Source of the DNA: Elsinoe ampelina
Taxonomy: Eukaryota
Direction: 5' to 3'
DNA: 37,511 bases
NCBI GenBank assembly: GCA_010093995.1
Contig: ML992503.1
Span: 242,984 to 280,494, forward strand
How positions within the stretch are numbered: the first letter of the stretch is position 1; the number at the start of each line of letters is the position of its first letter. The notes under the pieces were generated by a model that ran no database searches, had not been told where the DNA came from, and saw only the letters and a list, made by a program, of their open reading frames with translations. A program made the translations under genes and the position numbers. Of the stretch, positions 3,035-22,393 are shown piece after piece.

Positions 3035-3090
3035 TATATAATAGTAAAATTTAGGCTAAGTAATAGCTACTTATATAAGACCTAACGATT

Positions 3091-3260
3091 ATAGAGGTAA
3101 GTTAGTAGTAGGTAAAGTTAAGAGGCTTTCTAATAACCTACTACCTACCTCTAACTCTACCCTACGCTAATATACTCTAACTCTACTCTACCTAGCGTGC
3201 TAAGTAGAGTCTACTTAACTCTACCCTAGGTGAGTTATTCCTAACTCTATAACTACTCTA
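3091..3260. mobile_element. Terminus of a hAT-family DNA transposon (TIR plus subterminal repeats); the element body lies to the left
   Basis: Ends ...CTCTATAACTACTCTA, the same 16 bp that end at 21935. It is a diverged inverted match to 9803-9970 and has CTAACTCTA/CTACTCTA subterminal repeats. Confidence 0.7.
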
Positions 3261-3345
3261 ATTACTAATATTAAGGAAGAATTAAAGTATTATTATATTA
3301 TATTATTATAGTAAAGAAATTTATTACTCTACCTATACTATTTCT

Positions 3346-3908
3346 CTAGTATAAGCTACTACCTAAAACTCTAATTCTTAACTAACTACTAACTATAAAC
3401 TTCTAATAGTAGCGCTTAGTAAGGCTAGAGTTCTTATAATTAATAGTAATATACTTAGTATAGATAGCGTTAAGGTTTATATCTATAAATAAGTATTAAT
3501 TAAGGTTTTAATATATATTAAATAGACATATACCTTCTATATATCTAATAATAAATACCTCTACTAATTCTTAGAGAGCTCTAAGTATATTAGCTATCTA
3601 GTAATTAACCTTAAGAGTAAGCTATATATCTTAGAATATCTTATAGATAAGGCGAGAAAAGAGAAGTTTATAGAATAATAATTAAATATTCTTCTAGTAG
3701 TAACAAATCTTATAGAGAGTAATAGCTACCTTCTATTAGTTCTACTCTATAATTAGAAACTATAATAAATACTACTAGGCTTAAATCTCTACTTCTTTCT
3801 AGGCTTAGCTTAGAATTATAATATCTTCTTTATAGTAGGTTACTTCCCTTTATAACTTCTTTCTCTAGGACTAGTAGTAGCTTAAGAATAACCTTTTTTA
3901 CGTACTAT
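3346..3908 (-). pseudogene. Histone H3-like gene, copy 1 (3 exons; introns 3726-3772 and 3483-3533), RIP-inactivated
   Basis: De-RIP reading MARKK...KPRKKQRFKPG/TVAL.EIRRYQK...KLPFSRLI.EI...GALQES.EAF...E/D.NLNAIHAKRVTI..KD..LAKR. Introns are GT..AG. Colinear with 19497-20049. The stop position is uncertain. Confidence 0.88.
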
Positions 3909-3917
3909 AGTAAAGTA

Positions 3918-4118
3918 TGTTAAGAATATAGCTCTCTCTAGATAATTAGGCTATAAAGTTATATAACCTTAAGTTATATAATGCTAAGGCCTAGGGATTT
4001 ATAGCTGTTCTTTCTTCTAGTAGATAGACTTCTTAATTAATTAACTCGTCTATTACCTAACTAGTGTACGATTAGTTCTATATAATATTCTACCCCTAAA
4101 CGTGTCTTCTACTTAATA
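3918..4118 (+). repeat. 5' LTR of Copia A copy 2
   Basis: TG...(C>T)A ends; direct repeat of 9086-9286. Confidence 0.96.
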
Positions 4119-4132
4119 GGTTATAAGCCTAG
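4119..4132 (+). promoter_or_regulatory. Primer binding site, internal (half) tRNA-iMet type
   Basis: GGTTATAAGCCTAG here and GGTTATAAGCCCGG in copy 1, directly after the LTR. This is the RIP form of GGTTATGAGCCC, as in Ty5/copia. Confidence 0.8.
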
Positions 4133-4587
4133 AGCTATAGTATAAGTATAGAATTGTATATACCGTAGTTAAGTATCTACGTTATTAAAATTAGGCCGGA
4201 TTCTATTAGTATTCTCCTCCGTTTCCTCTCTATTATCTTAATCTTAGATAGATTAGTAGAGGCAGTATAAAGCGTAAAAGACTAGTTACTTAGTACATTA
4301 AGTAGGACATATTAAGACGTCTACTATAGATTTATTTCTATAATTGTATAACAGCTGCTATTTATTAGCTATAAATAACTAAACAATAACTAAACAATAT
4401 TTGTTTTATTACTATTTTCTCTCTTAAGATTAAGTACCTATTAATCTTATTAACAATTATCTAGTTAAGACTAGTATAGAGATCTTAACACCTAGAAGAA
4501 TTAACTTAAAGGTTATTAACCTCCGGATTCCAACCTTTATTTATTTATTTATAAAGTTCTTTTCTACTCTAGAACTTATCTTTAGCT

Positions 4588-7500
4588 ATAAAAAACAATA
4601 ATACTTAATTAAGGCAGCTAGTACCTATACTATCTAAAGATAACTATAAGAAGTAGTTCTAATAAATAGAGCTCTAGCTTATATTAAAGAAGGTATTATA
4701 GACTCTTACTTCCCTTACTAAACTGTTAGTAATAACTCTAGGGTTATTATTAACTTCCTTATTTAACTCCTAGTATTCTCCTCTATTAGTAGAGGAGAAT
4801 AGTACTACCCTTTACTAGATTTATAGATATATCTCTAAGAGAGATTAAGAAATAATTTAGGAATAGTAGTAGGCTAAACTAGCTTAGGAGAAGCTAAAGA
4901 GCAAGTATATAAAGTAGATAGGTATATAGGTAAGACAACTTTAGAAAGAGTTTATAATATATACTATAGGTAATAATATAACTATCTTAGATGCCTAGTT
5001 ATACCTAACTATATTAGGAAGGAGAATTAATAAGTCTTTAAAGATTAAGTAATACTCCTTACTAATAATAAGAATTTAAAGACTACTTAGTGCTCTTCTA
5101 GCTTTATAGTTAACTATAAGAGATACCTTAGATACTTAACTCTACCTTAGTATAGATAAGATCTATAACATTCTTAAAGAAAAGAAAGCATAAAAGAGAG
5201 AAGGGGAATCTACTATACTTATAAGAGGTAAGCTATAATAGGGAACTAGTAGGAGCTTAAATTATATATATATCTTATATAAGGAACCTAGACACTCTAT
5301 GTTAAGGTGTTCTTATTTCTAATAAGCTAAGAAGTATATCTAGCTATTCTATAGAGTTACTAAAAGGAGTAGCTCTATAAGGAGATAGTTACCTAAGCGC
5401 TAGAAACTACTTAAACTTATAAGATAGCTTACTAAGAGAATAGACTTCCTTAAAGTAGCTAAATTAAGAAGGAGAGGTAAAGCCTATCTAGCTACTAAGA
5501 GTAGTTTATTATTAATATCTCTATCTCTACTACTAGAAGTTCTATCTAGGGATAAAGAGCTTAAAACTATAGGTTCTATATTAGAGGTTTAAGGTAAGCT
5601 TCTATATTATTAGTAGATACTTAACTCTAGAGTATCTAACTATATAATAGACAAGCTAACTCTCTTTAGAGGCCTATTAAGCAAGATTCGTACTTAATAG
5701 ATCTAGGTTAAAAAGAGTTACTTTTAGTTATAGTTAATAGAAACTATAGTTATTAAGACTAAGAAGAGAGATAAGATAAAGATATAGGCTCTTTATGTAC
5801 CTAATCTTAGTATTAATTTAGTCTCCTATTATAAGCTATACTCGGATTTAGGGGTTTCTAGAGTTTTTAATTTAAATTTGTTTCTTATCCTTAATTAGTA
5901 GAAGCAACTATTGCTTAAAGCTAGAATTTAAGAGGAAGTATATATTATCTAATTCCTCTTTAAGTAATTAGCTAATTAAAAGCCGCATTCTAGATCTAAG
6001 CCTAGCTTAATTCTAGATCTAGCTAATTAGGATTTAGCATTCCTTACTACCTAGCTTATAATTATATTATAGACTAAGTATGTATATCTAACCTAGGATA
6101 AGTAATAAGAGGATCTTATTAACTTAGGACCTAATAACTCTAAGATAGAGTATTAGCTCTAGTATAGGAGATTTACTTACTTTAGAATTAAGAAGCTTAG
6201 GGATCTTTATAAAGTTATAACCCTTAAGAAACCTATTAACCTAAACTATAATCTATCTATTCTATATAAGGTCTATTCCCTTACTAAGATAAGGAATAGA
6301 AAAGGTAAAACCTTATAGAAAAGACTAGAGGTTCTTTAGCTTATCTATACTAATATCTATAGCTTAATTAAAGTAAGTAGAGAAGAATTTAGATACTTTC
6401 TAGAGCTTATAGATAGCTACTTAAGAATAATATAGATTAGTCTACTTAAGATAAGAGATAAAGCTCTATAAAGGCTTATTAAGTAGAAGCTAAGAGTTAA
6501 GAAGGAAAGTAATACTAAGGTTAAAGTTACTAGATTAGATAATACTAGTAAACTTAATAAGATTCTAAAGTAGTAGGAGCGCTAAGAAGATATCTATTAT
6601 ACAACTACTAAGCTATATAATTTAATTTAGAATAGACTAGTAGAGAAAGACATCTAAACCTTAGAGAATAGTATAAGAGTAATACTTAAGGACTTAAAGA
6701 TGCTAAATAAGTTCTAGCCTAAAGTAGTTTAGGTAGATATATACCTAAGGAACAGGACAGTAACTAGACCTATAATCAATAATAAACAAGTTATACCTAT
6801 TAAGGCCTATATAGGCATTAAGCTATTAGTTAATTATATTAGAGTCTAGGGCTATAAGGTATATACCTATATAAACCTAAAGTCCCTTTCTATATATAGA
6901 AGAAAAGATAAGCTTATAGATAGAAGGAGAGTAGGAGTATTCCTTAGCTATATAGATAGAACTAATAGGATATATAAGATATAGGTATTTAATAGGAAAG
7001 TAGTAATTATATTACTAAATGTTAAATTCTCTAAGTTTAAGAAAGATAGTAATATTAATCTTAGTATTAGGATTAATACTATAAGCAATTAAGCACTAGT
7101 TAGGAGACTAGTTAGTAGACTAACTTAGATTTAGACTAAGGTTAGATCTAGGATAGACTAACTAAATTAGCCTATTTAAAATAAAGCACCTATAGGAAGA
7201 ATCTTCTTATATATTAAGATCCTAAGAGTTAACCCTATTAACATTATAGATTTCTAACATAGAGAAGAGCTAATAGTTTAATCTTTACTAACTAACTATA
7301 TAAGTTAATCACTTAAGAGATTAAGAGATAATAACTCTAATAATAAAGGCTCTAAAGCTAAGTACTATAGAGCTTTTATTACTAAGTATATTAATTAGCA
7401 AGATAAGGTTAATAAGATTACTATAATAGTCTCTATTAAGTAACATATCCTAATCCTAAGGGACTACTATAAGGCTATTACTAATCTAGTATAGGGAAGC

Positions 7501-9057
7501 AAATAGAAGAAAGTAATTAATATAGAGCTTAATACTCTACACTTAAACAATATATAGGAAGAGGTTATTTCTCTAAAGGGATCTAACTTAGTAATATCTA
7601 AATAGGTCTTTAATATTAAGTATAATATAGATAGCTCTATTAAAAAGTTTAAGGCTAGACTAGTTACTAGAGGCTTCTTATAGAAGTATAGCATTAACTA
7701 TAAAGATATATTTATACTAATAGTTAGAGTAGATACACTTAGGCTATTCTTCGCTATTGTTTATATATATAACCTTAAGTGTCACTAGGTAGATATTAAT
7801 AACACCTTTATAGAGTTCTTTCTTTATAAAAGGATTTATATAAGGCTACTACCTAGACTAAAGGTTAGTTCTAGATTTGCCTTCCGGATTCTAAGGAGCT
7901 TATATAGACTTAAGTAAGCTACTAGAGACTAGAACTAGCACTATATCTCTAAGCTCCTAAAGCTAGGCTTTACTTAGAGCGAAGTAGACTCTTATCTTCT
8001 TATATACTATAATAAGAAGATTATTCTTTTAGTTTATATTAATAATATACTATTTGTAGTATAAAGTAAAAAGAATATCTAGTAGTTTAAGTAAGAACTT
8101 AGTAAGATCTTTAAGATTAAAGATCTTAGTAAGGTCAATAAAGTTCTTAGGGTTAAGGTTATAAGGGACAGATAATAAAGCACCTTAAGACTTAATTAAA
8201 CCTACTATGTAGATAATATGCTATAGAGGCTTAATATAACCTCTAACAAGGTTACTCTAATAAAGCAGCTAATAGATAATAAACTCCCTTAAAGAGCTTA
8301 GGAAGATAATATAAGGTTTAGTAGAACTAAGTACTTATATACTATTAGAAGCTAGATATACCTTAGCACTCTAACAAGGCTAGATACTGCCTTTGCCTTA
8401 GGAAGGCTAAGTTAGTTCATAGCAGATCTAATAGATAGTTATACTATTAAGATAAAGAAGATGTTAAGATATATTAGATTAACTAAAGATCTTAGTATTA
8501 TATTTAGAAGGAATAGAAATAAGACCCTTAAGGGATACTCTAATTTAGACTATGCCTTAGACAAGTTAGATAGAGTCTCTATCCTTAGATATGTCTTTAT
8601 ACTTGTAGGTAGTTCTATTAGCTAGATAAGTAGGAAGCAGAAGTCTGTTTTAACCTCTACTATAGGGGCTAAATACATAGTAATATACTCTTATATAAAG
8701 AGATTACAGTTCCTGTCTTAGTTACTAAGAGACATAGGCTGTTATAAGATAGTTAGGCAATTACTATAGAGGCTAACTATAAAGGAATCTTAGAAAGCAA
8801 TAATAAGATTACCTTTTACTACTAGGATTAATAGTAATAACTAAGTAGCTCTTTTACTTATAAAAGAGCTATATACTTATAAAAGGGCAAAGTATATTAA
8901 TGTTGCTTACTACTACGTTAGGAGGCTATAGAGGGACTAGAGGATTTAAGTAGAGTTTATAAAGATAGTAGACATAGTAGCTAATAGGTTAACTAAGCTA
9001 TTATAAGGTTAGATCTTTATAAGGTTTATAAAGTAACTTAGCTTATTATTAACCTAA
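4588..9057 (+). pseudogene. Copia gag-pol polyprotein relic (~1490 codons)
   Basis: De-RIP motifs: CX2CX4HX4C knuckle ~5267-5310; protease WILDSGASNHM ~5614-5646; LWHRRF.H ~6157-6180; integrase core ~6340-6760; RT (KARLV.RGF.Q, LYGLKQA.R.W, LVY.DD) ~7450-8250; RNase H (GYSDSDYA, KHIDV.YH) ~8530-9050. Confidence 0.93.
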
Positions 9058-9085
9058 TAGCTTATCTATAGGAGCTAAGTAGGAG

Positions 9086-9286
9086 TATTAAGAATATAGC
9101 TCTCTCTAGATAATTAGGCTATAAAGTTATATAACCTTAAGTTATATAATGCTAAGGCCTAGAGATTTATAGCTGTTCTTTCTTCTAGTAGATAGACTTC
9201 TTAATTAATTAACTTGTCTATTACCTAACTAGTGTGCGATTAGTTCTATATAATATTCTACCCCTAAACGTGCCTTCTACTTAATA
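9086..9286 (+). repeat. 3' LTR of Copia A copy 2
   Basis: Direct repeat of 3918-4118, preceded by a purine-rich tract and followed by the TSD. Confidence 0.96.
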
Positions 9287-9623
9287 AAGTAAGAGGTTAT
9301 TTATATATAGCTAAGAAGTTAAAGTTCGTATATAAAATTTTAATATATATAAAATAGTAAAAAGAAGAGGCTAGAGTAAGAAATATAAAACCTATTATTA
9401 GATATGCTATTTACTATTAATAATAAAGAATAATAGAATAATAGTAAATAACTTATATAATAATAGCTTTCTTATTCCTTACTCTAGCTTCTCTTTTTAT
9501 TATTTTATACATTTATAAATTATAAATTTCTAACTCTAACTTTCTCTTTATACCTTTACCTCTTTTACTTACCTTATATATAATTTATATACTATAAATA
9601 CTCTTTTTATTACCTTTAATTAA

Positions 9624-9802
9624 ATATCTATACCTATAGAAGACATTAAGATAGAGTAGAAAGAGTAGGTAGTAATTAAGTAAGAAGAAGACAATAGAGA
9701 GAATGTTCTAAGAGAATTATTAGGGGTATTAATTATAGTCTCTTATTATATATAGTTACTAACAATACTAGAGATTTAATTCTAAGTAGTAGAAAATTAA
9801 AC
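9624..9802 (+). pseudogene. Truncated 5' fragment of the acidic-tail ORF3 paralogue (exon 1, intron 1, start of exon 2)
   Basis: Colinear with 20389-20567; similarity ends abruptly at the hAT TIR at 9803. Confidence 0.75.
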
Positions 9803-10190
9803 TAGAGTAGTTAGTAGATAGTAGGTATTCTACTACGGGTAGAGTAGAGTATTATTTCTTAGCATAGTAGGTATAGGTTAGGTAGAGTATTCTTAGTAGT
9901 AGGTATAGTAGGGGTTAGGTAGTAGATATTTTATATACCTAAATACTCTACCTACTATAACTTACACCTATATATAGGTAGGTATTACGTAAGTAATAGA
10001 AGCTTCTCTTAATTCTCTAATATAAGACATTATATAGAATTTAAAATTAGAAAGGACAGTAATAATTATAGTCTCTAATTATAGCATCTTATATGCTTAG
10101 TTATTATAATTATAAATAGTTCTATTCTATACCCTTATAGATAATCTTATATGCTTTACTAGAGGCTTGTTATTATTAATATTATTATTC

Positions 10191-10394
10191 TAATTACGAC
10201 TAGCAAGATAAGGGAGTTAATTATATCTATTTATTAAGATATCGAGACTTAGAAGAAGAAGAAGAAAAGCTAGTATACAAAGCACGCGTAATATCGAGGG
10301 CGGAGCAGCTAGAAGCCTAGGCCGCGATACTAAAATTACATAACTAATCTAAACTATATCCTAACTAAATCTAGTTCGTATCTATCTCGTATTA
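10191..10394 (-). repeat. 3' LTR of Gypsy B copy 1
   Basis: Direct repeat of 16376-16579; the PPT complement CTATCTTCTCTCTT is adjacent at 10395. Confidence 0.95.
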
Positions 10395-10717
10395 CTATCT
10401 TCTCTCTTAAGTGTATTTACTCTTAAATACTATTATATATTATTTATTAATCTATTTCGGCCTTAGCTTATCTATGTAAGAGTCTAGATAGTTATATAGC
10501 ACGTTAGCTACTCCTTTAAGATTGTTAATTAGCCACTAGGTAAGATTCTCTAGATAGCTCTTCTAGCTTATATAAGTAACTAGTTTACTACGTAGTATAT
10601 GTATATTAACTACGTCGTCTACCTCGTATTTCTCTTTACTATTAACTTCTATCGGAGGTAGTTCCTTAAAGACTTAGCCTAGTAGAGAGTTATTTAGATG
10701 CTTAGTAAGTAGATTAG

Positions 10718-10921
10718 TAATACGAGATAGATACGAACTAGATTTAGTTAGGATGTAGTTTAGATTAGTTACATAATCTTAGCATCGCGGCCCGGGCTTC
10801 TAGCCGCTCTGCCCTTAATATTACATGTGCTTTATATACTAGCTTTTCTTCTTCTTCTTCTAAGTCTTAATATCTTAACGAATAGACGTAATTAACCCCC
10901 TTATCTTACTAGTCGTAATTA
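10718..10921 (+). mobile_element. Solo LTR of Gypsy family B, in opposite orientation inside Gypsy B copy 1
   Basis: Complete 204-bp LTR with flanks ATTAG (10713-10717) and ATCGG (10922-10926), which differ only by transitions. The uninterrupted site is present in copy 2 near 32861-32865. Confidence 0.93.
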
Positions 10922-13900
10922 ATCGGCGTAGAATATAGAGTAGATTTATTATAGCGTAGCTAGTAGATCTAGCTTATATACTAATAGTAACTACTTCTCG
11001 AGGATCTTATATAGACTAACGTGTTTTAGTAGTAGCTTTAGATTGCTATATAGCTAGAGGTTCTTTATCGATAACTATACTAAATCGCCTACCTTAAACT
11101 CTATCGGCTAGTAGTGCTTATTAGCTTATTCTACTATACGCGATTAGGCAATAGCAAGGTTAGCTTTAGTAATAACTAGCGCTTCTTTTAGTTGTTTAGT
11201 AAGTGTATAGATGTCGACCTTATTTAGCTTAGCTCTTGTTAATAGTGCGTTAAAAGGGAGTTAGAAGCTTAGCCTTAGCTTATATCCTCTAGTAACCTTA
11301 AATAGTAATAGCTTAGTACTCTCTAATAGGTTAACGTTAGTAGAGAACTCTATAACTAGTAGAATAAGAGTCTAATTACTAAAGCGTATAGCGTATAAAT
11401 AAATAACTTACTCGAACTTACAATTTATAACTTCTAATTAGCTGTCTATCTATAGATGCCCTATAGTAGATAGTTTAGTAGTAATCTTTAGGATTTAGTA
11501 GAGCCTCTTCTATACGTCGCTAACGAACTAAGAGCTATAATCTAAGGTAATACTATCTAGTAGGCTATATAGTTTCTACACATAGAAGAATAATAGCTTA
11601 GCTATCTTAAATATAGAGGTTCCTTCTTCTCCCTAGAAGTAAGGGATTAAGTGTTGTTCCTTAGACAAGTAATTGACAATATATAGTACTACGTTATAGC
11701 TATCTACTAGAGGTAGGCTAGTAACGAAGTCTATAGTAATGTATTACTAGGGCCTAACCGGAATAGGTAATAGTAATAGAGGGCTAGCTAGTAAGCTATA
11801 GCGAGCCTTTAAGCGCTTATAGTTATAATAGTTAGCGATAAACCTCTTAACATTAGAATTACACCCGGGGATATAGAAAGTAGACTTAATTATAGTAGCC
11901 GTCTTAGTAGCTCCTCCGTGTATGTAATTCTTTAATATATAAACTTCTTAGATAACTTTTGTAGCTATAGAGAAAGGCATAATTAATCGGCTAGTAGCGT
12001 ATAGTATTCCCTTCTTAATTATAACATTAGTCGATAGTAACTATTTTCTCTTTAGGAAGGCTTCTATTATATAGTAGACACTATAAACTGTCTCGAAGTT
12101 AGAGTCTTATAAGTTAGCTTTAGCTACTTCGTCGAAAAGGAGTAAAGGCTCTTCTATAGCGGAGATAGGTACTATATAGATACCTAGCTCGCGAGCCGAA
12201 ATAGGCAGCGAAATAGGTGCTAAACTAGATCTTAGTTTAGCCTAGATTAGTAATTTAGCTCGGATACGACCTAGATTTAGTTCGTTAATAATATGCTAAT
12301 CTAGCACTTTATATAGTAATAGCGTCTAGCGTAGATTAGAGTCTTCTTTCGAACGTAGTACGTCTCTATTTCTTCTTATAAGTGTGTTAGTCTTACTATT
12401 AGCGGCGCTAGACCTATATATAATCTTAAAGTTAAACTACGTAAGGTAGAGGGCCTAGCGCACTTAGTAGCGTAATAGCTTCTAAGTCTTTATAAAATGC
12501 ATTAAGGATTAGTAGTTAGTAAGGACGTAAATAGCCTTATCGGATTAAGTACTTATAAGCTTAGAGGCCTATTCCTTAAAGGCTTAAACGATTACTAATA
12601 GCTCCTTATTATAGATTACGTAGTTATGTTCGGCTTTGCTTATAGATTTACTAAAGAAGGTAACAGGCTAGAGAACGTCGGAATTGTTATATTACAATAG
12701 AATTCTAGTAGTAGTAGTATCGGAGGCGTCGGTCTTAATAACTACTTACTTCGAGTAATTAAAGTACGCTAAGATAGAGGCACTTATAATAGTATACTTT
12801 ATGTAGTTAAACGTAGTAGTATACTTATTATTTTATAGCGTAGCGTCCTTCTTAAGTAGGTCGTTTAATAGCTTAGCGATAGTACTAAATCCCTTAATAA
12901 AGTAGTAATAGTAGCTATAGAAACTAATAAAGCTTCTTATCTAAGTAGTATTACTAGGGGCTAGTTGTTTCTAGGCTTATATAGCTTTAACCTTCTTTAG
13001 ATCTATCTTAACTCTATCTCGACTAATAATAATACTAAGATACTTTACTTCTGTTAGGTAGAACTTGCTCTTCTTAATATTAGTATTTAGGTCTAAATTG
13101 TAGAGACGTTAGAGTACTAGCTTAATATACTTAGCGTACTCTTAGCAAGTGCCGTCGGTATAGATAAGAATATTATTAAGATAGATTAACACGAAGCGCT
13201 TAAGCATGTTAACAAAGTTATAATTTATAAACCTCTACTATACTATAGAAGCGTTAGTAAGGCCGAATAGCATTACTAACTACTTAAAGTTACCTATACG
13301 TATAGAGAACATAGTAAGGTCTTTACTATCGATAGAGTTATAGAGGTAGTAGAAGGCTTAATAGATATTAATCTTACTAAACTATTTAGCTTTACTTACG
13401 CGCGTAAGTGTTTCTTTAATAAGAAGTAAAGGATAGATATCTCGCTTAGTTACCTCGTTAAGGCTATAGTAATCGATGTAAAGGCGAAGTTCGCCGCTAG
13501 ACTTATAAACAAAGAGAATAAGCAAGGAATAGCTAGCTAAGCTTAGCGTAATAAAGCCTTTATTAAGGTGCTTATAGATAAATAGCTCTACTATATTAAG
13601 CTCCTCTAGTAATAGGCAGCGAAGAGGTTTAGTACGTAGTAGTTTAGCTCTATTCTTAAGTGTAATTTAATTGTTAAAATCTAGCCGATATAGAGGAAGC
13701 ATATTAGATTACTCTTTAGAGAAGACGTTAGTAAACTTCTATAGCTCTTCTAGGAGAACTACTATAGGGTCTAGTTCTAGCTCGGAAGCTATCTAGTAGT
13801 AGTTCTCGATATTCTTTACTAAGATTATAAACACCTTATTCTTTTAGTATTTAGCTACTAATACAAAGGTAGCGGCGCTAATAAAAGCAATAGTTAGCTC

Positions 13901-16375
13901 TTCTTACTTAGTGTTACTTACGTAGGTAGGTACGTAGGAGAACTTATATATTAGCTAAGTACTATAAGAGATTAGGTTAAACTCTCTCTAATTTAGCTTA
14001 AAGTTCGACCTAAGAGCTAGTAGTCGATATAGTCTAGTTTATCCTATCTTAGCGGCTAAGCTAGAACCTAGTTCGTAAGTTAAATTAGAACTAAACTAGT
14101 TCCGAACTAGAGTAGTAGCTTTACCGAGCTAGATTTCTAGATCTAAGCTAGGCTTAGATCTAGATTCTAGTCTTTTAATTAGCTACGGTAGCTCCTACTT
14201 AATAACTGTCGGTAAAAACTCTTCTTTGTATATAACTTAGCTATGCTTATAGTCGATAGTAGCCCTATTAGCCTTAAGCTATCTAAGGCTAAGGATAATA
14301 TTAAATCGGCTAATATCTATAATACGGAAGGTAGTAAAGTTGTTTAGCTTACTAGAAATAGTAGTAGTAAGAGAGACGCTATAAGTAACTTATTCTATCG
14401 GAACACTATTATAAGTCTAAAGCTAAATAGAGCTAGCTAGTGCCACCGGACAGCTAAAACTCTTTAGCTTATTAAGAATATTATAGTTAACTATAGCGCC
14501 GATAAGCGCGCTAGTATCGATAAAGACTTAAAGTGCAATAGTACAAGAGTAGTTATAGAGGTTATAAATAGTAATAAGAGTTATAATAGCGAGGATATAG
14601 TAGCTAACGACGCTATTTAATAACTATATACCTCCGGATCTATCTCGAATTACTCTTATTCTACTAGAGAATAGAACTTGTTCTCTAGCTACTTATTTCT
14701 CTAGCTAGATAGGCTAGTAGACTTATAATCTATTTCGAGGTTAAACTAAGACTAAACTAGATCTAGTTCGTAAGCCGAACTAGTATTAACTTAGTTACTT
14801 AATTCGGCTAAGCGATCCTAGAGCTATTATATCTCTTCTACGGCACTAATACGTATAGGACGTAAAGCGGCGTAAGTAGCCTTCTCTAAGGCGCTAGCTA
14901 TATACTTAGTAGAGATATAGCTAGGCTTACTACATATATAATAGGTAAGTATTAGAGCTAGACGAAAGAGCTATAGGGCTCCTCTAGTAATAGAGCAAAA
15001 GGTAGCTAGAGTAGTAAGCGCGGAAGTAGAATAAGACACACAGATTAGTACTATAGTAACGTAGCTTATAGCTAGGCTAGAGTATAAGGCCTAAGTACGC
15101 TTAGTAATAAGGTTGCTCTATTAAATATTATAGTTAGTAGCGTAGGCCTTTATAATAAAGGTAGAGAGGTTATTAGTATTAAAGTTAATAAGAGTAACGC
15201 GTAGTTTATTAGATATCTTCTAACATAACTAGTAGAGCTATTTATCCTTAGCAATCTTAGCGCGAAGAGCGTACTTATTAAATTCGCTAATAAAGGAGTT
15301 AAAAGAGGTATTACGCTAGAAGAGGCTAGTAAACTAGGCGCGCGTAGTAGCCTTATAGTTAGGGTCTTCGAAGCGCTAAGCTAAGATACTAAGGGTAGCT
15401 TTAACGTTAAGGGTGTTATTACCGGCAAAGTCTATAATAAGAGTATATACTTCGCTAGAAAGGTGCGAGTAGAGATAGGTAAACTAGGTTACCTCGGTAG
15501 AGAAATAGTTAGTATTAGTACGTATCTTGTTCTTTATTTAGTGCTTAAAAACCTTAAACTGTTCTAGAGTGCCACTAGAGAAGATAGCGAGGTCTAGTAT
15601 CTTTTTAGACAATATAGTACCGTATATAGAGGGAGCTAGTATAGTACGTTCTATCTTAGCTCTTAGCTAGGCTAGTTTAGCCTTAAGTTTGCTAATGTCT
15701 ATAAGGTAGCGCGTAGTTTAGATAGTAAGATTATTAGTAGTACTATTAGTAGTATCTAGTTCTATTAGAGCGTTATCTAACTAGTTACGTAGGTTAAGAG
15801 TGTTAGCATATACTAAGTTATATACGGTAACCTATCCATCGTAGGTAGACTTAATAAAGGTAAAGGCCTTATATAGAGTAGTTATCCTATCTATCTCTTA
15901 TAGCCTCTTCTTAAGGTTAGTGTTACTAAGGCAGATAAGGTCGTAATAGGCTAACTAGACTAGTTCGTTATTGTTGTTAGCGGGGGGTAAAGAGATCTTA
16001 CTTACGTAGCAATTATCTTCGCTATAGTTAGAGTAAGCTATGCTCGGCGTAGTTAGTTATAAATAAAATAGTGTAAAAAGTCAACGCGTAACAAAGGAGA
16101 TATTAAAAATTTTTAGCCGGCGGCCTACTTTCTTTAAGAGTTGTCTATAACTCGACTTATTACCTTCTTCTTATATCTTCGAAGTTTGTAGTATTAACCT
16201 ATATAGTAGTAGTAAGGATCTATTATAGTGTACGTAGGAACTATAGTTATAATAGCTTCTTCTTTAATTCTTTAATTCTTCGTAAGTAATAGTTAGTAGT
16301 TATATAAGTAGTAGAATAACTAGATAATTTAATAGCTCCGTTGCTTAGTTATAGTTGTTCGAAGTCTCGATATAG

Positions 16376-16579
16376 TAATTACAACTAGCAAGACAAGGGA
16401 GTTAATTACGTCTATTCGTTAAAATATCGAGACTTAGAAGAAGAAGAAGAAAAGCTAGTATATAAAGCATATATAATATCGAGAGCGAAGTAGCTAAAAG
16501 CTTAGGCTATAATACTAAGATTACATAACTAATCTAAACTATATCCTAACTAAATCTAGTTCGTATCTATCTCGCATTA
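16376..16579 (-). repeat. 5' LTR of Gypsy B copy 1
   Basis: Matches the other four family-B LTRs. Confidence 0.95.
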
Positions 16580-19496
16580 TATTCTCCTTGTAATTGCTTA
16601 GAATAAAGTTACTCTCTTAAGAAGGTAGCTTAAGTAGGTTATCTACCTTGTCTATAGTAGTATCTTTATAACTACTATTAATAGTATCTTAATAACTACT
16701 AGTAATAATATTACTACTTAACAAAGAGAGACTTATTATAAGCTTTATAATAATAAGCTACTAGATAGTTTATATAGTAAGCTAGTGTCTTCTATTACTA
16801 ATAATATTCTTTACTATATTAAAGACATATTCGACACCTACGCTAGCTATTAGTATAGCAAGGATATTATAAGTAACTTTAGTAAGCTATAGAAACTTCT
16901 TCTTATTAGTCTTCTACTAATTAAGCAACTTAAATTTAGTCCCTAGTTAAATTCGAATAGGAGAGATACTAAGGTAATTCTTACTCTCTTAATATATAGT
17001 TTATTTCTCCTTCTCTTATTTTAGAGATATAGACTCTATACTAGATTAGAAGCTAAAGCTAGTCTACGGGGAGGTAATCTATATAGGTACTCGAGGTCGA
17101 CGGAACTAATCCTCTTTATTATTAGACAAGATTATAGCGTTAAGAGTTTTAGGTTAACTTAATAGTAATTTACTATTATAATAACTAAGGTAGTTAAGGA
17201 ACTACTCGCGATACTTCCCCTTATTAGTTTTAGCCTAGGTCTCGTCCTATATTACTATTAGCTTTACTATAATAATATATCTATAAGCTATAAACCTCGT
17301 AGGGAGTTAGCTTTTATAAAGGGTCAAGAATAGTGCTATAATTAAAGAGGTAACTTCTCTTATTATTAGTGTAAGAATAGTACTTTAATAGTTTATCTTA
17401 ACTATATTATACTACCCTTTTAACTACTATAGGCTAACGCTCCTTATTATTCTTCTTCTCGCCTATAATACTATTCTTAATTATATTAAGAAAGTCGAAT
17501 AGTTAATTATATATTATCTAGATATATAAGATCTATAGGCGGCTAATAGTACTTAGAGAGGTAGTTACTTCCTTAAAGTTCTTAAGTATTTTTATAACTA
17601 GCTTAAGGTAATTCTATTCTATACTATTAAGATAAAGATACTTAAGATTCTTATAGTCTAGATTACTAGTGTTATTACTAACTAAGTTAGATCTAGCACT
17701 AGTAGAGCCTTTTAGTATAATTTCCTACTTAAGCTATTTATTAATAAATAGCCTAAGCTCGAGACTATACTTATATATATTAAAGGTTAAGTTCTACTAC
17801 GTCTTAATATCTTAAATAATAACCTTACGCTCTCGAGGCGTTATAGTTTATTAGAGGTTAATAAACCTCTTAAACCGTTAAGGTAATTAGTTAATAGTAA
17901 TATAAGTTACACGAAGCTAGTAATTTATTAGACTATAATTAGAAATTGTAATTAGAAAGCTAATCTTCCGAAGCGAGTTTAGTACTAAGAGTTTAGTAGA
18001 GATATCTTTTAAGTGCTATCTTTTAAGCCTAGTAGCCTACTCTTCTTCCTTAGTAGTCTAAAGGTTAAGGTGCTTAATAATGTCTTATATAACTAGGTTA
18101 ATAATATATATAAGGCATAGAATAGTATTCTCTTATAAGTTCTATATAATACCTATCTATCTTAGAAGCTTATATATAGTCTTATATAACATATAATTGT
18201 TACTTACATTATCTATAGTAATTGCTAGAAGCTAGTTCTAGAGATTATACTACCGGAGTACCTATATAAGCTTAGTAGCTATATTCTGCCCTATATATTA
18301 ACTACGAAGTAGTACTATATCTAATAGTTGTTCCCGGAGATACTATTAGTTATTAATATAATAAGCTTTAATTGTAATAAAGCCTAAGTAGTTGTTAGTA
18401 GACTAGCTATTAAGTGTAATTAAAATCTTTATAGTCTTATTAAGATTCTATAATAAGCTTTTATAGAGAGTCTTAAATTTGTTAATAAAGAGTATAGCGA
18501 AATAACTACGGCTTAGTATAAGTACTCTCGGGTATAAGAACTATATAAACTATTAAAATAATAGTCGCTTAATAGTGTAGAAGGACTAATTATAGTTAAT
18601 AACTGTTTAAATAAGCTCTAATTAGAAGTAAGTAACTAAATATAATAGAACGTTTTTCTAATCGATTACTAGATAAGCTCGAAGTTATATAAGTACTCGG
18701 ACTACTAGTACTTTCTTATAGACTAGTCTTGTTACTTTCCTACAAAAATTTAACTCTCTGTATTTACTTATTACATTAGTACTATTCTTTCCTAGCGTAG
18801 AGTAGGTAAGAGCATTACTATACTATAGGTAGTAAATATATAGACGACTATCTAATACCTATATAGCTTCTCTAAAATATCTCTATACTTGTCTAGTTCT
18901 TAGTTTTAAGTTCTAGTATAGTATATAGAACTCCTTAGAGTAACTATAGCAAGATACCTAAAGTATTAAGTTCTACTATATTAAGAAGCTTTAGAGGTCT
19001 ATTTGTTCGTTAGGATATACTAAGGGATTAAGCGTTAGACACTTTAGAAGATACTATTATATAGGCTAACTACCCTTATTGCATTATTATATAGTAAAAC
19101 AATAATTAAGCAAATCTTAAGAGATAGAGATTACTATAACTAATAGAGTTAATAGAAGATATAGTTATAGATCGATTAGATCGTTAAAGTCTACTATAGT
19201 AGAGTAGAGGTTATATAGTATTATAGATAGTATAGGTGTTTATAATGTTATACTTATTTAGCTATATAATTTTAAATAATAGATTTGTTTTTAGACTATT
19301 AGAAAGTCTTCTCTACTATTACTTTACATAAGGCATTTTAAAACGCGCTAGTAGCCCCTATATAATTACAAATATTAATTATAACTAATATTTTTAATTC
19401 TAACCTTTAAAGTATATAATAAATAGAAAGGATTAAAGTATTATTATATTATATTATTATAGTAAAGAAATTTATTACTCTCTCTATACTATTTCC

Positions 19497-20049
19497 CTAG
19501 TATAAAGTACTACCTAAAGCTCTAACTCTTAATATATTACCGACCTAGAACTTCTTATAGTAGCGCTTAGCAAGGCTAGAGTCCTTAGCCTAGATAGTAA
19601 TATACTTAGTATAGATAGTATTAAGGTTTATATCTATATATAGTGTTAATAGAGAATTTAACATATATTAGATAAGTATATACCTTCTATATATCTAATA
19701 ATAAATGCCTCTACTAATTCCTAGAGAGCTCTAATTATACTAGTCTAGAAGTAAAGGTTAGACTTAAAGTTCTAAGTAATCTTATAGATAAGGCAAGAAA
19801 AGAGAAGCTTATAGAATAATAGAGTAATCTCTTTCTAGTAGCAACAAATCTCTTAGAGAGCGATAGCTAGCTTCTATTAGTTCTATACTATAATTAAAGA
19901 CTATAATAATTACTACTAGGCTTATATCTATACTTCTTTCTAGGCTTAGCTCTAGATTATAGTATCTTCTTTATAGTAGGTTACTTCCCTTTATAACCTC
20001 TTTCTCTAGGACTAGTAGTAGCTTAAGGACAATTCTTAGTACGTACTAT
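19497..20049 (-). pseudogene. Histone H3-like gene, copy 2 (exons 19914-20049, 19684-19866, 19497-19633; ~151 aa), RIP-inactivated
   Basis: De-RIP reading MARTKN...[54 protein letters not shown].EAF.....E/D.NL.AIHAKRVTIQAKD..LAKR, a clear H3 histone fold. Introns are 47 and 50 nt, GT..AG. The stop position is uncertain. Confidence 0.92.
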
Positions 20050-20109
20050 AGTAAAATAAGAGGTTATTTATGTATAGCTAAGGAGTTAAAGTTTATATAT
20101 AAAATTTTA

Positions 20110-20280
20110 ATATATGTAAAATAGTAAAAAGAGAAGGCTAGAGTAAGAAATATAAAACCTATTATTAGATATGCTATTTACTATTAATAATAAGAATAAT
20201 AGGAGAATAATAAATAACTTATATAATAATAGCTTTCTTGTTTCTTACTCTAGCTTCCCTTTTTATTATTTTATATATTT
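20110..20280. repeat. ~40-bp imperfect inverted repeat in the H3L/ORF3 divergent intergenic region (also at ~9343-9513)
   Basis: TATATGTAAAATAGTAAAAAGAGAAGGCTAGAGTAAGAAA (20111-20150) pairs with TTTCTTACTCTAGCTTCCCTTTTTATTATTTTATATA (20241-20277). Confidence 0.8.
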
Positions 20281-20388
20281 ATAAATTGTAATTTCTAACT
20301 CTAACTTTACCTTTATACCTTTATCTCTTTTACTTACCTTATATATAATTTATATACTATAAATACTCTTTTTATTATATTTAATTAA

Positions 20389-21657
20389 ATGTCTATACCT
20401 ATAGAAGATATTAAGATAAAGTAGAAAGAGTAGGTAGTAATTAAGTAAGAAGAAGACTCTAGAGAGAATATTCTAAGAGAATTATTAGGGGTATTAATTA
20501 TAGTTTCTTATTACATATAGTTACTAATAATGCTAGAGGTTTAATTCTAAGCAGTAGAAAATTAAATACTAGATCTCTTAGCGTAGTGCTAGTTAAACTA
20601 GAAAGAGCTATAAGACTAGATTTGTCGCTAGATACTCTAGACCTCTAAGTTAAAGCGCTTATGCTATTAAGTAGAGAGATTATACTTCTTAGCGTATATA
20701 TAAGGAGTAAGCTCTAGCTACTACTTATATAGTAGATTATAAAGTAGTTAGTACTTTACGTAACAAGATTAAGATAGAGAATAGATAGGACTAGCTCTCT
20801 ACTAATAAGTAGAATATTAAAATTAATAATGCTATTAATAATATAGAGGAGAAATACTTTAATAAGTAGAGAAGTAGTAAGTCTATTATTATAGTATACT
20901 ATTATAGTAGTACTAATTGTTATAGGCGAGTAGCTCGAATTTATATTTATATAGACCTATAAGAAATAGGCTAGTATTAGAAAGACTCTATAAAAGTAAG
21001 AGTATAACAAGATTATTAAGCGTATCTAAGATAATATAGTAGCAAATTAGTAAGGCGAATAATAGCTAATATAAGCCTATACGTATATCTATAGTACTAG
21101 TAGTATTATTAAGAAGCTATAGCGCTAGATTTACTAGGATAGCTATATAAGCCTTATTACTAACGATACTAACAATAAATAGACATATAAGATTTTTTTT
21201 AAGTAGCTTAAAGAGCTCTCTCCTATAGAATTAGTAGTATTATAGAATCCTAACTAGTAGTAAGTTTATTATAGTCTTTAATTATAGTATATTCTAACAA
21301 TTATATAGGCTAGTTATTTCTCTATCTCCTAAGTATAAATATATCTCCGAGCTTAAACTCTATAGTACTAGGCTATACTATAAAGGAGACAATAATAATA
21401 AGTATAAGAAGAAGGTTAAGAAGAATAAGAATAAGATTAAAAGAATATTAGATAAGGAAGCTAGTAGTAATAAGGATTATTATTTAGGTATTAAAGTTAA
21501 AGATAAGTCGGATAGTAAGGATAAGAATAATAAGATTATAAAGTACTTTAAGCTTAAGACTAATAGTAATAACAATAATAAGGATAAGAATAAGAATAAG
21601 AATATAAAGAATAAGAATACTACTAAGGTTAAGGATAAAGAGATATCTAATGCCTAG
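20389..21657 (+). pseudogene. ORF3: 4-exon gene of unknown function (~374 aa) with a long Asp/Glu-rich C-terminus, RIP-inactivated
   Basis: Intact ATG at 20389. Introns 20491-20536, 20877-20925 and 21260-21308 are all GT..CTAAY..AG, and splicing them keeps one frame to TAG at 21655-21657. In 21385-21654, GAT/AAT/AAG/GAA codons revert to D/E runs. Confidence 0.72.
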
Positions 21658-22393
21658 ATATAATAGAGATTAAAAGTATAATTCTATAAGTAGTAGTATT
21701 AGAGAATATAGTTTATAATTAGAATCTATTATTAGTAATTATACTTTGTTATTTTGTATATTACTAATAACCTATAGAGTGTAAAATTTATAACTCTACT
21801 CTAACCTACCCCTTAGCTTAGCTAACTCTAACTCTACCTACTCTCGCGAGAGTTAGCTAAGCCTAGAGGTAGGTTAGAGTAGAGGTAAGTTACCTAGAGA
21901 AAATTCTAACTCTACTCTACTCTATAACTACTCTAATTATAGATATAATTAGTTACTCTAGAATCTAGTATCTATAAGCTTAAGATGTTAGTAGTAGCTA
22001 AGATAAATACTAAGTGTAATCTAATAGTAATAGCTATATTAATTAACACTAGTAGAGTTAATTCCTTTTAATATTATACTTCTTTAGTAATAAAAGCCTT
22101 AATTCTCTCTTTAAGAGTCTTATTATTTAGCCTTTATTTAACCTCCTTTATAGTCTACTAGTTTAGTGTCTATCCTTCTAGCCTTAGATACTTATTTAAG
22201 TAATAGTACTTAATCTACTTATACCAGCCTTAGTATATATATTTAAGCTCCCTAGAGAAACTAGGTTTCTTATAAAGAATATTCTTAGTAGCTATAGAGA
22301 AGGCTATAGCTCCCTTACTAGCCTTTATAGTACTATATAGCTTATAGAGTTTATAAAACTGTCTAAACTTAGTAATTAGTTTAAGTATAGTTA

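Follow-up and report, generated by a model that had tools for sequence, protein, structure and literature searches.

Within the window analysed here, a stretch of 37,511 nt from Elsinoe ampelina, two histone H3-like (H3L) genes differ abruptly in loop 1 of the histone fold, and the question raised by the locus is what this difference means for genes that are otherwise readily aligned. The first-pass annotation regarded the two as H3L paralogues and suggested diversifying selection or mimicry of the centromeric histone CenH3. Our results indicated that they are not host paralogues; copies 1 and 2 belong to sister subfamilies, A and B, of one hAT transposon, which carries H3L as cargo. We put the chance at slightly better than even (about 0.55) that their loops represent two old alleles of a loop whose structure tolerates change, and which recombination left standing as a divergent island, and that the likeness of one of them to CenH3 is convergent.

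Across its 37,511 nt, the window forms an AT-rich block of repeats; RIP signatures occur all through it, and it contains no ORF of at least 100 aa starting with ATG. Copy 1 (subfamily A) lies on the minus strand, with exon 1 at 3773..3908 (136 nt, N-terminal tail, the start codon now reading ATA), intron 1 at 3726..3772 (47 nt, phase 1 after G44), exon 2 at 3534..3725 (192 nt, covering alphaN, alpha1, the long loop 1 and most of alpha2), intron 2 at 3483..3533 (51 nt, phase 1 after E105) and the histone-fold part of exon 3 at 3400..3482 (N110, loop 2 and alpha3; extent given without the stop codon). Its loop-1 region, equivalent to I74-I89, occupies 3583..3639 on the same strand, i.e., 57 nt or 19 RIP-mutated codons. 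Copy 2 (subfamily B; 19551..20049, minus strand) comprises exon 1 (19914-20049), intron 1 (19867-19913), exon 2 (19684-19866, 183 nt), intron 2 (19634-19683) and exon 3 (from 19633), and its loop-1 region of 48 nt, or 16 codons, is positioned at 19733..19780.

Both copies are dead and sit in a nest of insertions. An LTR retroelement foreign to the hAT element (3918..9286, unstranded; LTRs of ~200 bp, 5-bp target duplication) lies ~9 nt upstream of the copy 1 start codon, and the upstream/promoter region of copy 1 is displaced to 9287..9802 (minus strand), where it retains 93% identity to 20044-20573. The hAT element carrying copy 2 (9803..21935, minus strand) is nested in the element of copy 1, 511 nt upstream of H3L; it is itself broken up by an LTR element, and its hAT dimerisation domain (PF05699, over the cut-off) is found at 16743-16976. 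The left end of this element is A-type and thus recombinant, and may have originated inside the nest. Just downstream of copy 1, the right end and the 8-bp target duplication of another subfamily A element (L005) are inserted at 3037..3268 (plus strand), and copy 1's element resumes at G000:C3:229113-229835.

The loop-1 difference between copies 1 and 2 is real. Pairwise alignment gave 84% identity over 653 nt with a single 9-nt gap, which falls within loop 1, and the 19-codon loop of copy 1 and the 16-codon loop of copy 2 are both in frame between alpha1 and alpha2, in agreement with the earlier description of sharply different loops, that of copy 1 being three residues longer. The flanks and promoter had been called alignable as well, which held for the sequences themselves, although the promoter of copy 1 is cut off from its gene by the 5.4-kb LTR element. 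As RIP produces transitions only, divergence was scored as transversions, and these are concentrated in the loop rather than spread uniformly across the gene: the A/B comparison gave 11/48 in the loop versus 20/415 in the remaining exonic sequence of H3L (Fisher p 8e-5) and 6/97 in the introns (p 0.005), with 0/49 in alpha2. The loop of copy 2 had been read as canonical, and, allowing for RIP (CpA/TpG to TpA), it is indeed compatible with the host H3 loop at 15/16 positions; nine of its ten unambiguous codons give the same residue as host H3, the sole mismatch being T at 86. Codon 110, reported as AAT/AAC in place of C110, was confirmed in A and B, and RIP permits N or D at this position, never C. 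The motif KLPFSRL, attributed to both genes, fared less well: S68 is directly readable in A and B, but the motif was assembled across A copies, and its P and R in B were inferred, the nine-copy reading of B giving L and C at these two positions.

A genome search with copy 1 returned at least 41 matches, and among the best 16 of them, the 19-codon loop is present in six (L001-L006, subfamily A), spread over four contigs, and the 16-codon loop in ten (L007-L016, subfamily B). In the more distant families C and D, a 19-codon loop was observed in 12/12 and a 21-codon loop in 17/17 of the copies examined, respectively, and the length changes in the loops of A, C and D all preserve the reading frame. 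Copies within A and within B differ by ~6% transitions but only 0.08-0.18% transversions, which indicates that each subfamily goes back to a single active element whose copies were mutated afterwards. All A/B copies examined were killed by RIP, and the loop difference was fixed before this inactivation, between sister alleles. Copy 1 is heavily RIP-mutated and lies inside an insertion nest, so that an indel acquired after its inactivation, or an assembly artefact, might have been suspected; the change is not private to this dead copy, however, and its recurrence in six independent copies, the small transversion distance within the subfamily and the kept frame refute such an explanation, to which we attach practically no weight.

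The A and B H3L genes occupy the same place in elements of ~5.7 kb, with an element-wide identity of ~82% over 5 kb. The elements have terminal inverted repeats and 8-bp target duplications (the ends of A_L003, A_L005, B_L014 and B_L015 were read), PF05699 matches over the cut-off were obtained in A and B copies, every one with stops, and an acidic ORF remnant is found on the opposite strand in the left part of the element. Two stop-free hAT matches in the genome are unrelated to the H3L-carrying element. With respect to gene order, the transposase of A and B follows H3L on the same strand; at the metagenomic loci L115 and L117, a transposase-like ORF is arranged head to head with H3L. The two 70-residue pieces in question are presumably hAT transposase, an assignment based on a motif, and a Pfam search of both gave no match.

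An H3L-carrying hAT ‘transduplication’ element was described in Pyrenophora tritici-repentis (Manning et al., 2013; PMC3538342); ESTs were reported for its H3L, which the authors placed with neither H3 nor CenH3. The elements described here resemble it in being hATs of ~5.6-5.7 kb with terminal inverted repeats, a transposase and H3L, and the H3L genes have in common the two intron sites, S68 and N110. The P. tritici-repentis element has a third, central ORF beside transposase and H3L. Its copies are mostly intact and near-identical with a 16-residue loop, whereas families A-D are RIP-killed in all copies examined and have loops of 19, 16, 19 and 21 residues, respectively; loop-1 length is not taken up in the passages of Manning et al. 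that we consulted. Similarly, the Mycosphaerellaceae elements (Dhillon et al., 2019; PMC6710886) share with ours the H3-like hAT cargo, the 8-bp target duplications, the killing of all copies by RIP and an intact host H3, but they measure ~9.5 kb versus ~5.7 kb here. Dhillon et al. read those H3-like copies as a retro-captured host transcript, independent of P. tritici-repentis (PMC6710886); the two introns shared with the P. tritici-repentis H3L suggest that the genes studied here point to one old lineage instead. In addition, the second intron keeps the reading frame in A (51 nt) and C (L017-L028), where read-through translation shows an insert of 16-17 residues, and the “16-aa insertion” that Dhillon et al. 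noted between H3-like copies might be an in-frame intron 2 of this kind.

The wider H3L family provides the background against which the loops must be judged. Intron sites after G44 and E105 are common to A-D, the P. tritici-repentis H3L, L115, L116/L117 and L119, and the introns of host H3 and host CenH3 are located at other sites. A motif scan of metagenomes found five loci, four of them with intact H3L genes (three distinct) whose loops have 19, 17 and 23 residues, and a profile built from metagenomic H3Ls led to 16 further proteins being kept; the intact comparison set numbered 19. This set was selected by N110 and profile score, and a transposon context was established only for L115, L117 and P. 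tritici-repentis. A protein search with six RIP-mutated A copies gave 37 candidates, none reaching E 0.001, and a mixed profile, built with host H3 and CenH3 among its members, recovered solely canonical H3 and CenH3 among the 120 and 150 matches listed; the reference CenH3s came from these mixed-profile searches.

Loop length in the 19 intact H3Ls is 16 residues in 11, including P. tritici-repentis, 17 in one, 18 in four, and 19, 21 and 23 in one each, so that 16 residues is the commonest state. Position 68 is other than Q in 17/19, N110 occurs in 19/19, which is partly circular because the set was chosen by this residue, position 84 is hydrophobic in 19/19, and position 102 is G in 17/18. 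W84 was found in two of the 19, one with a 16-residue and one with a 21-residue loop; long loops and W84 each occur without the other. Mean pairwise identity in the helices is 0.68-0.83, as against 0.52 over the last nine loop positions and 0.21 over the first five. As judged from these comparisons, a residue other than Q at 68 and N at 110 can be regarded as traits of the H3L family.

In a loop-free tree (72 columns, with best-guess residues at RIP-ambiguous codons), H3L including A-D was recovered at 98/100 and A+B at 97.6/97, and H3L and CenH3 were grouped weakly (87/86), so that the family may go back to either H3 or CenH3. With ambiguous codons set to X, FastTree gave A+B at 0.93, and an incomplete IQ-TREE search placed B beside D without support values. 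The trees left out P0269 (a near-duplicate of P0268), P0331 (the same gene as L115), L117 (the same as L116), L118, P0294 and other long-loop matches with C110, most canonical H3s and the split family C copy L066. A single clade of long-loop H3Ls was rejected (p-AU 0.03; 0.004 in a faster search), which indicates that loop length was altered repeatedly within the family. Taken at the level of sequence, these data identify H3L as an old transposon-borne H3 variant lineage, rather than a fresh capture of host H3 or CenH3, as far as A-D, P. tritici-repentis and the three metagenomic genes are concerned.

Several peculiarities were observed around this family. In intact H3Ls from distant fungi (L115:4700-4760, L116, L119, and Fig S3 of PMC3538342), intron 1 contains TATCACA twice right behind the donor site, and the reverse complement of this word reappears downstream of the H3L gene. 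The metagenomic protein P0294 has S68, C110 and a loop of 19 residues that includes R-W-Q; it seems to retain an intron at the site of H3L intron 2, and could be a link between H3L and a CenH3-like ancestor. L118 lies outside the H3L family; it is an intron-less ORF in which an N110-type H3-like domain is directly followed by an H4-like stretch, possibly a histone doublet.

The age of the loop difference was assessed against the rest of the element. At four-fold sites, a class that is approximate under RIP, A and B differ by 1/48 transversions in H3L versus 31/214 in the transposase (p 0.014), which suggests that the H3L flanks have a much younger common ancestor than the transposases. The loop, with its 11/48, is not distinguishable from the silent transposase sites (p 0.19) or from the subterminal DNA (88/465; p 0.56), and lies far above the local silent sites, introns and four-fold sites together (7/145; p 0.0006), of which the introns are no clean neutral baseline, given the conserved TATCACA in intron 1. 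What is new here is this combination, a loop about as diverged as silent transposase sites within a gene whose own silent sites are near-identical.

Both loop alleles are found on mosaic backbones. In the four-lineage site patterns, 19/25 variable sites in the segment running from the first intron through the second split A+L006 from B+L007, compared with 0/31 over exon 1, promoter and partner gene combined, and downstream of H3L, eight sites split A+B from L006+L007. L006 and L007 are each represented by one copy, that of L007 on a contig of 5.9 kb, and may be chimaeras of the assembly.

These data bear directly on the suggestion that loop 1 confers specificity and evolves under diversifying or balancing selection. 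Its alleles would then decide by which of the host's chaperones, readers or ubiquitin ligases the transposon histone is recognised, with both alleles being kept while the flanks homogenise. The excess of loop divergence over local silent sites is consistent with it, as is the fact that both alleles have spread to several copies on two or more backbones, and so is what is known of the corresponding loop elsewhere: in CENP-A, loop 1 forms the exposed portion of the targeting domain and is a binding site for CENP-N (PMC7475651), and the ligase Psh1 is bound by T171 and W178 in L1 of Cse4 (PMC13079627). Furthermore, of the 15 A/B transversions in H3L outside the loop, 14 are at non-four-fold sites, compared with 68/99 in the transposase (p 0.06), a hint of selection on the H3L protein over mere tolerance. 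This excess is not significant, however, when rates within H3L are compared (14/300 non-four-fold versus 1/48 four-fold; p 0.70), an unalignable, RIP-mutated loop permits no dN/dS, and loop divergence does not exceed that of the oldest neutral-like sites of the element. The partner-gene region is nearly unchanged between A and B (14/1000 transversions) and gives no sign of co-evolution with the loop. Diversifying selection on loop 1, as proposed in the first-pass annotation, is therefore possible but does not follow from the data, the loop being no more diverged than silent transposase sites or subterminal DNA, and we regard this alternative as a minority reading, albeit one to be taken seriously. 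A bolder version of it would make loop 1 of this ancient hAT-borne H3 variant an exchangeable specificity cassette, the bulk-H3-like and the long W84 alleles being kept by selection and shuffled among backbones, and thereby steering nucleosome placement or escaping control by host chaperones or ligases. Loop 1 of the CENP-A targeting domain is read by CENP-N, chaperones and Psh1 (PMC7475651, PMC8015243, PMC13079627). We put the cassette version forward as a speculation that is rather unlikely to hold.

The canonical appearance of the B loop deserves separate consideration, because its 15/16 match to host H3 lies above that of any of the 11 intact 16-residue H3L loops (6-13/16) and would not be predicted by tolerance alone. 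The B loop could have been patched in from canonical H3 by short-tract gene conversion, in which case the canonical loop would be derived. Consistent with this, B shows 0 transversions from host H3 in the loop's first 36 nt yet 12/48 in alpha2, and family C, its next relative in the genome, has a long loop. The silent sites are uninformative, however, with four-fold matches of 4/5 in the loop versus 51/58 in alphaN-alpha1 of A-D, and the host H3 gene ends 47/49 of its four-fold codons in a pyrimidine. Moreover, a 16-residue loop is the usual one in intact H3Ls, P. tritici-repentis among them, and the deep branches of the H3L tree are poorly resolved. Conversion is compatible with two old alleles surviving in a tolerant loop, but as the main cause of the difference it appears improbable. 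A related contrast was noticed in families A-D, which are not independent of each other: by purine/pyrimidine class, their four-fold sites match host H3 at the above 51/58 in alphaN-alpha1 and at 9/22 in alpha2, which could stem from codon bias or from sequence exchanged with host H3 long ago.

The likeness of subfamily A to CenH3 remains to be weighed. CenH3 is commonly recognised by a longer loop 1 and the lack of Q68, F84 and T107 (PMC7598501, PMC4359364). The host has a single CenH3 gene, at G000:C15, identical to P0033 (labelled Elsinoe ampelina by its source), with a loop of +4, S68 and W84. Subfamily A has a loop of +3, S68 and, at position 84, TAG in 6/6 copies, which before RIP encoded W, Q or R and not F; it was probably W, since this position is hydrophobic in all the intact relatives. 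Contigs from four other sequencing runs gave no coverage of the A loop. The CenH3-like pattern noted in the first pass, therefore, stands as far as the long loop, S68 and probably W84 are concerned, but these traits are not specific to CenH3. A longer loop is also present in 8/19 intact H3Ls, B shares S68, and 4/16 fungal CenH3s keep Q68 (the Pleosporales-type P0278, P0281, P0287 and P0320), so that its loss is not diagnostic among these fungi. Position 107 of A may be A, I, M, T or V under RIP, and T is kept in 9/16 fungal CenH3s, including that of the host.

In contrast, the residues that characterise fungal CenH3s are absent from A. All 16 fungal CenH3s examined have R-W-Q-S-Q-A at 83-88 and C110, with Q90 in 13 and H102 in 12; A has T85, A86, D/N87, G/R90, G/R102 and N/D110, and thus no Q85, S86, Q87, Q90, H102 or C110, and it also differs from CenH3 in having no RG-containing C-terminus, in its other introns, in being multi-copy transposon cargo and in having a sister gene with an H3-like loop. 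Cse4 carries a Scm3-binding motif, MMAS (PMC13079627); a literature search for CENP-A residues contacted by chaperones gave nothing further, and the comparison uses this motif alone. At the equivalent positions, the host CenH3 has Q, Q, A and A, and A could match it at 96 at most and fits host H3 at three. We take these positions to be H3 87, 90, 95 and 96, on the assumption that Cse4 W178 corresponds to H3 F84.

Mimicry would mean that the A loop was taken from, or selected to resemble, the host CenH3, so that the transposon histone was loaded at centromeres. When the A loop was anchored on both sides, the three highest CenH3 matches reached 7/14 positions, a value equally reached by an unrelated 16-residue H3L, and comparison of the loop DNA with host CenH3 gave 12 transversions over 42 anchored nt. 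In the histone-fold phylogeny with host H3 and CenH3, the best trees place A inside H3L, together with B. A tree constrained to put A in the CenH3 clade is 39 log units worse, although with this short alignment the placement is not formally rejected (p-AU 0.053; 0.12-0.16 in a faster search). Given the family-wide lack of Q68 and the missing CenH3 residues, the proposal of mimicry is poorly supported and we consider it very unlikely; a CenH3-specific patch in A is likewise unlikely on the residues compared, and the CenH3 likeness of A is probably superficial.

We therefore return to two old alleles in a tolerant loop. To judge from its conserved fold, the live H3L would have paired with H4 and entered nucleosomes, with selection holding alphaN, alpha1, alpha2 and loop 2, and with the exposed first half of loop 1 tolerating in-frame gains and losses; the variation of the loop is observed, and tolerance is the cause that we propose for it. 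A and B would each carry an old allele of the loop. Recombination between the subfamilies may have evened out the flanking H3L and partner-gene DNA and spared the unalignable loop, and the same process, which is our explanation for the observed mosaicism, could have put each loop allele on more than one backbone. The CenH3 likeness of A would then have arisen by convergence.

As the element type has been known, and in print, since 2013 and the copies described here are dead, the finding by itself changes little. A published account of H3L loop-1 variation was not found in the open-licence part of PubMed Central or in bioRxiv. H3L seems to be one old transposon-borne histone lineage with shared introns, rather than the outcome of repeated fresh captures; over a conserved fold, the length of loop 1 ranges from 16 to 23 residues. 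Natural pairs of short- and long-loop H3Ls offer a handle on what a selfish histone does. In addition, the traits usually taken to mark CenH3 (a long loop, no Q68 and no F84) can all occur in a transposon gene that is probably non-centromeric.

A minor observation concerns the nest itself. The element of copy 1, a third H3L-hAT element, was hit by two others (9803-21935 and 3037-3268), one on each side and <1.2 kb from H3L, and this double insertion around copy 1 may reflect a target preference or simply a heterochromatic nest.
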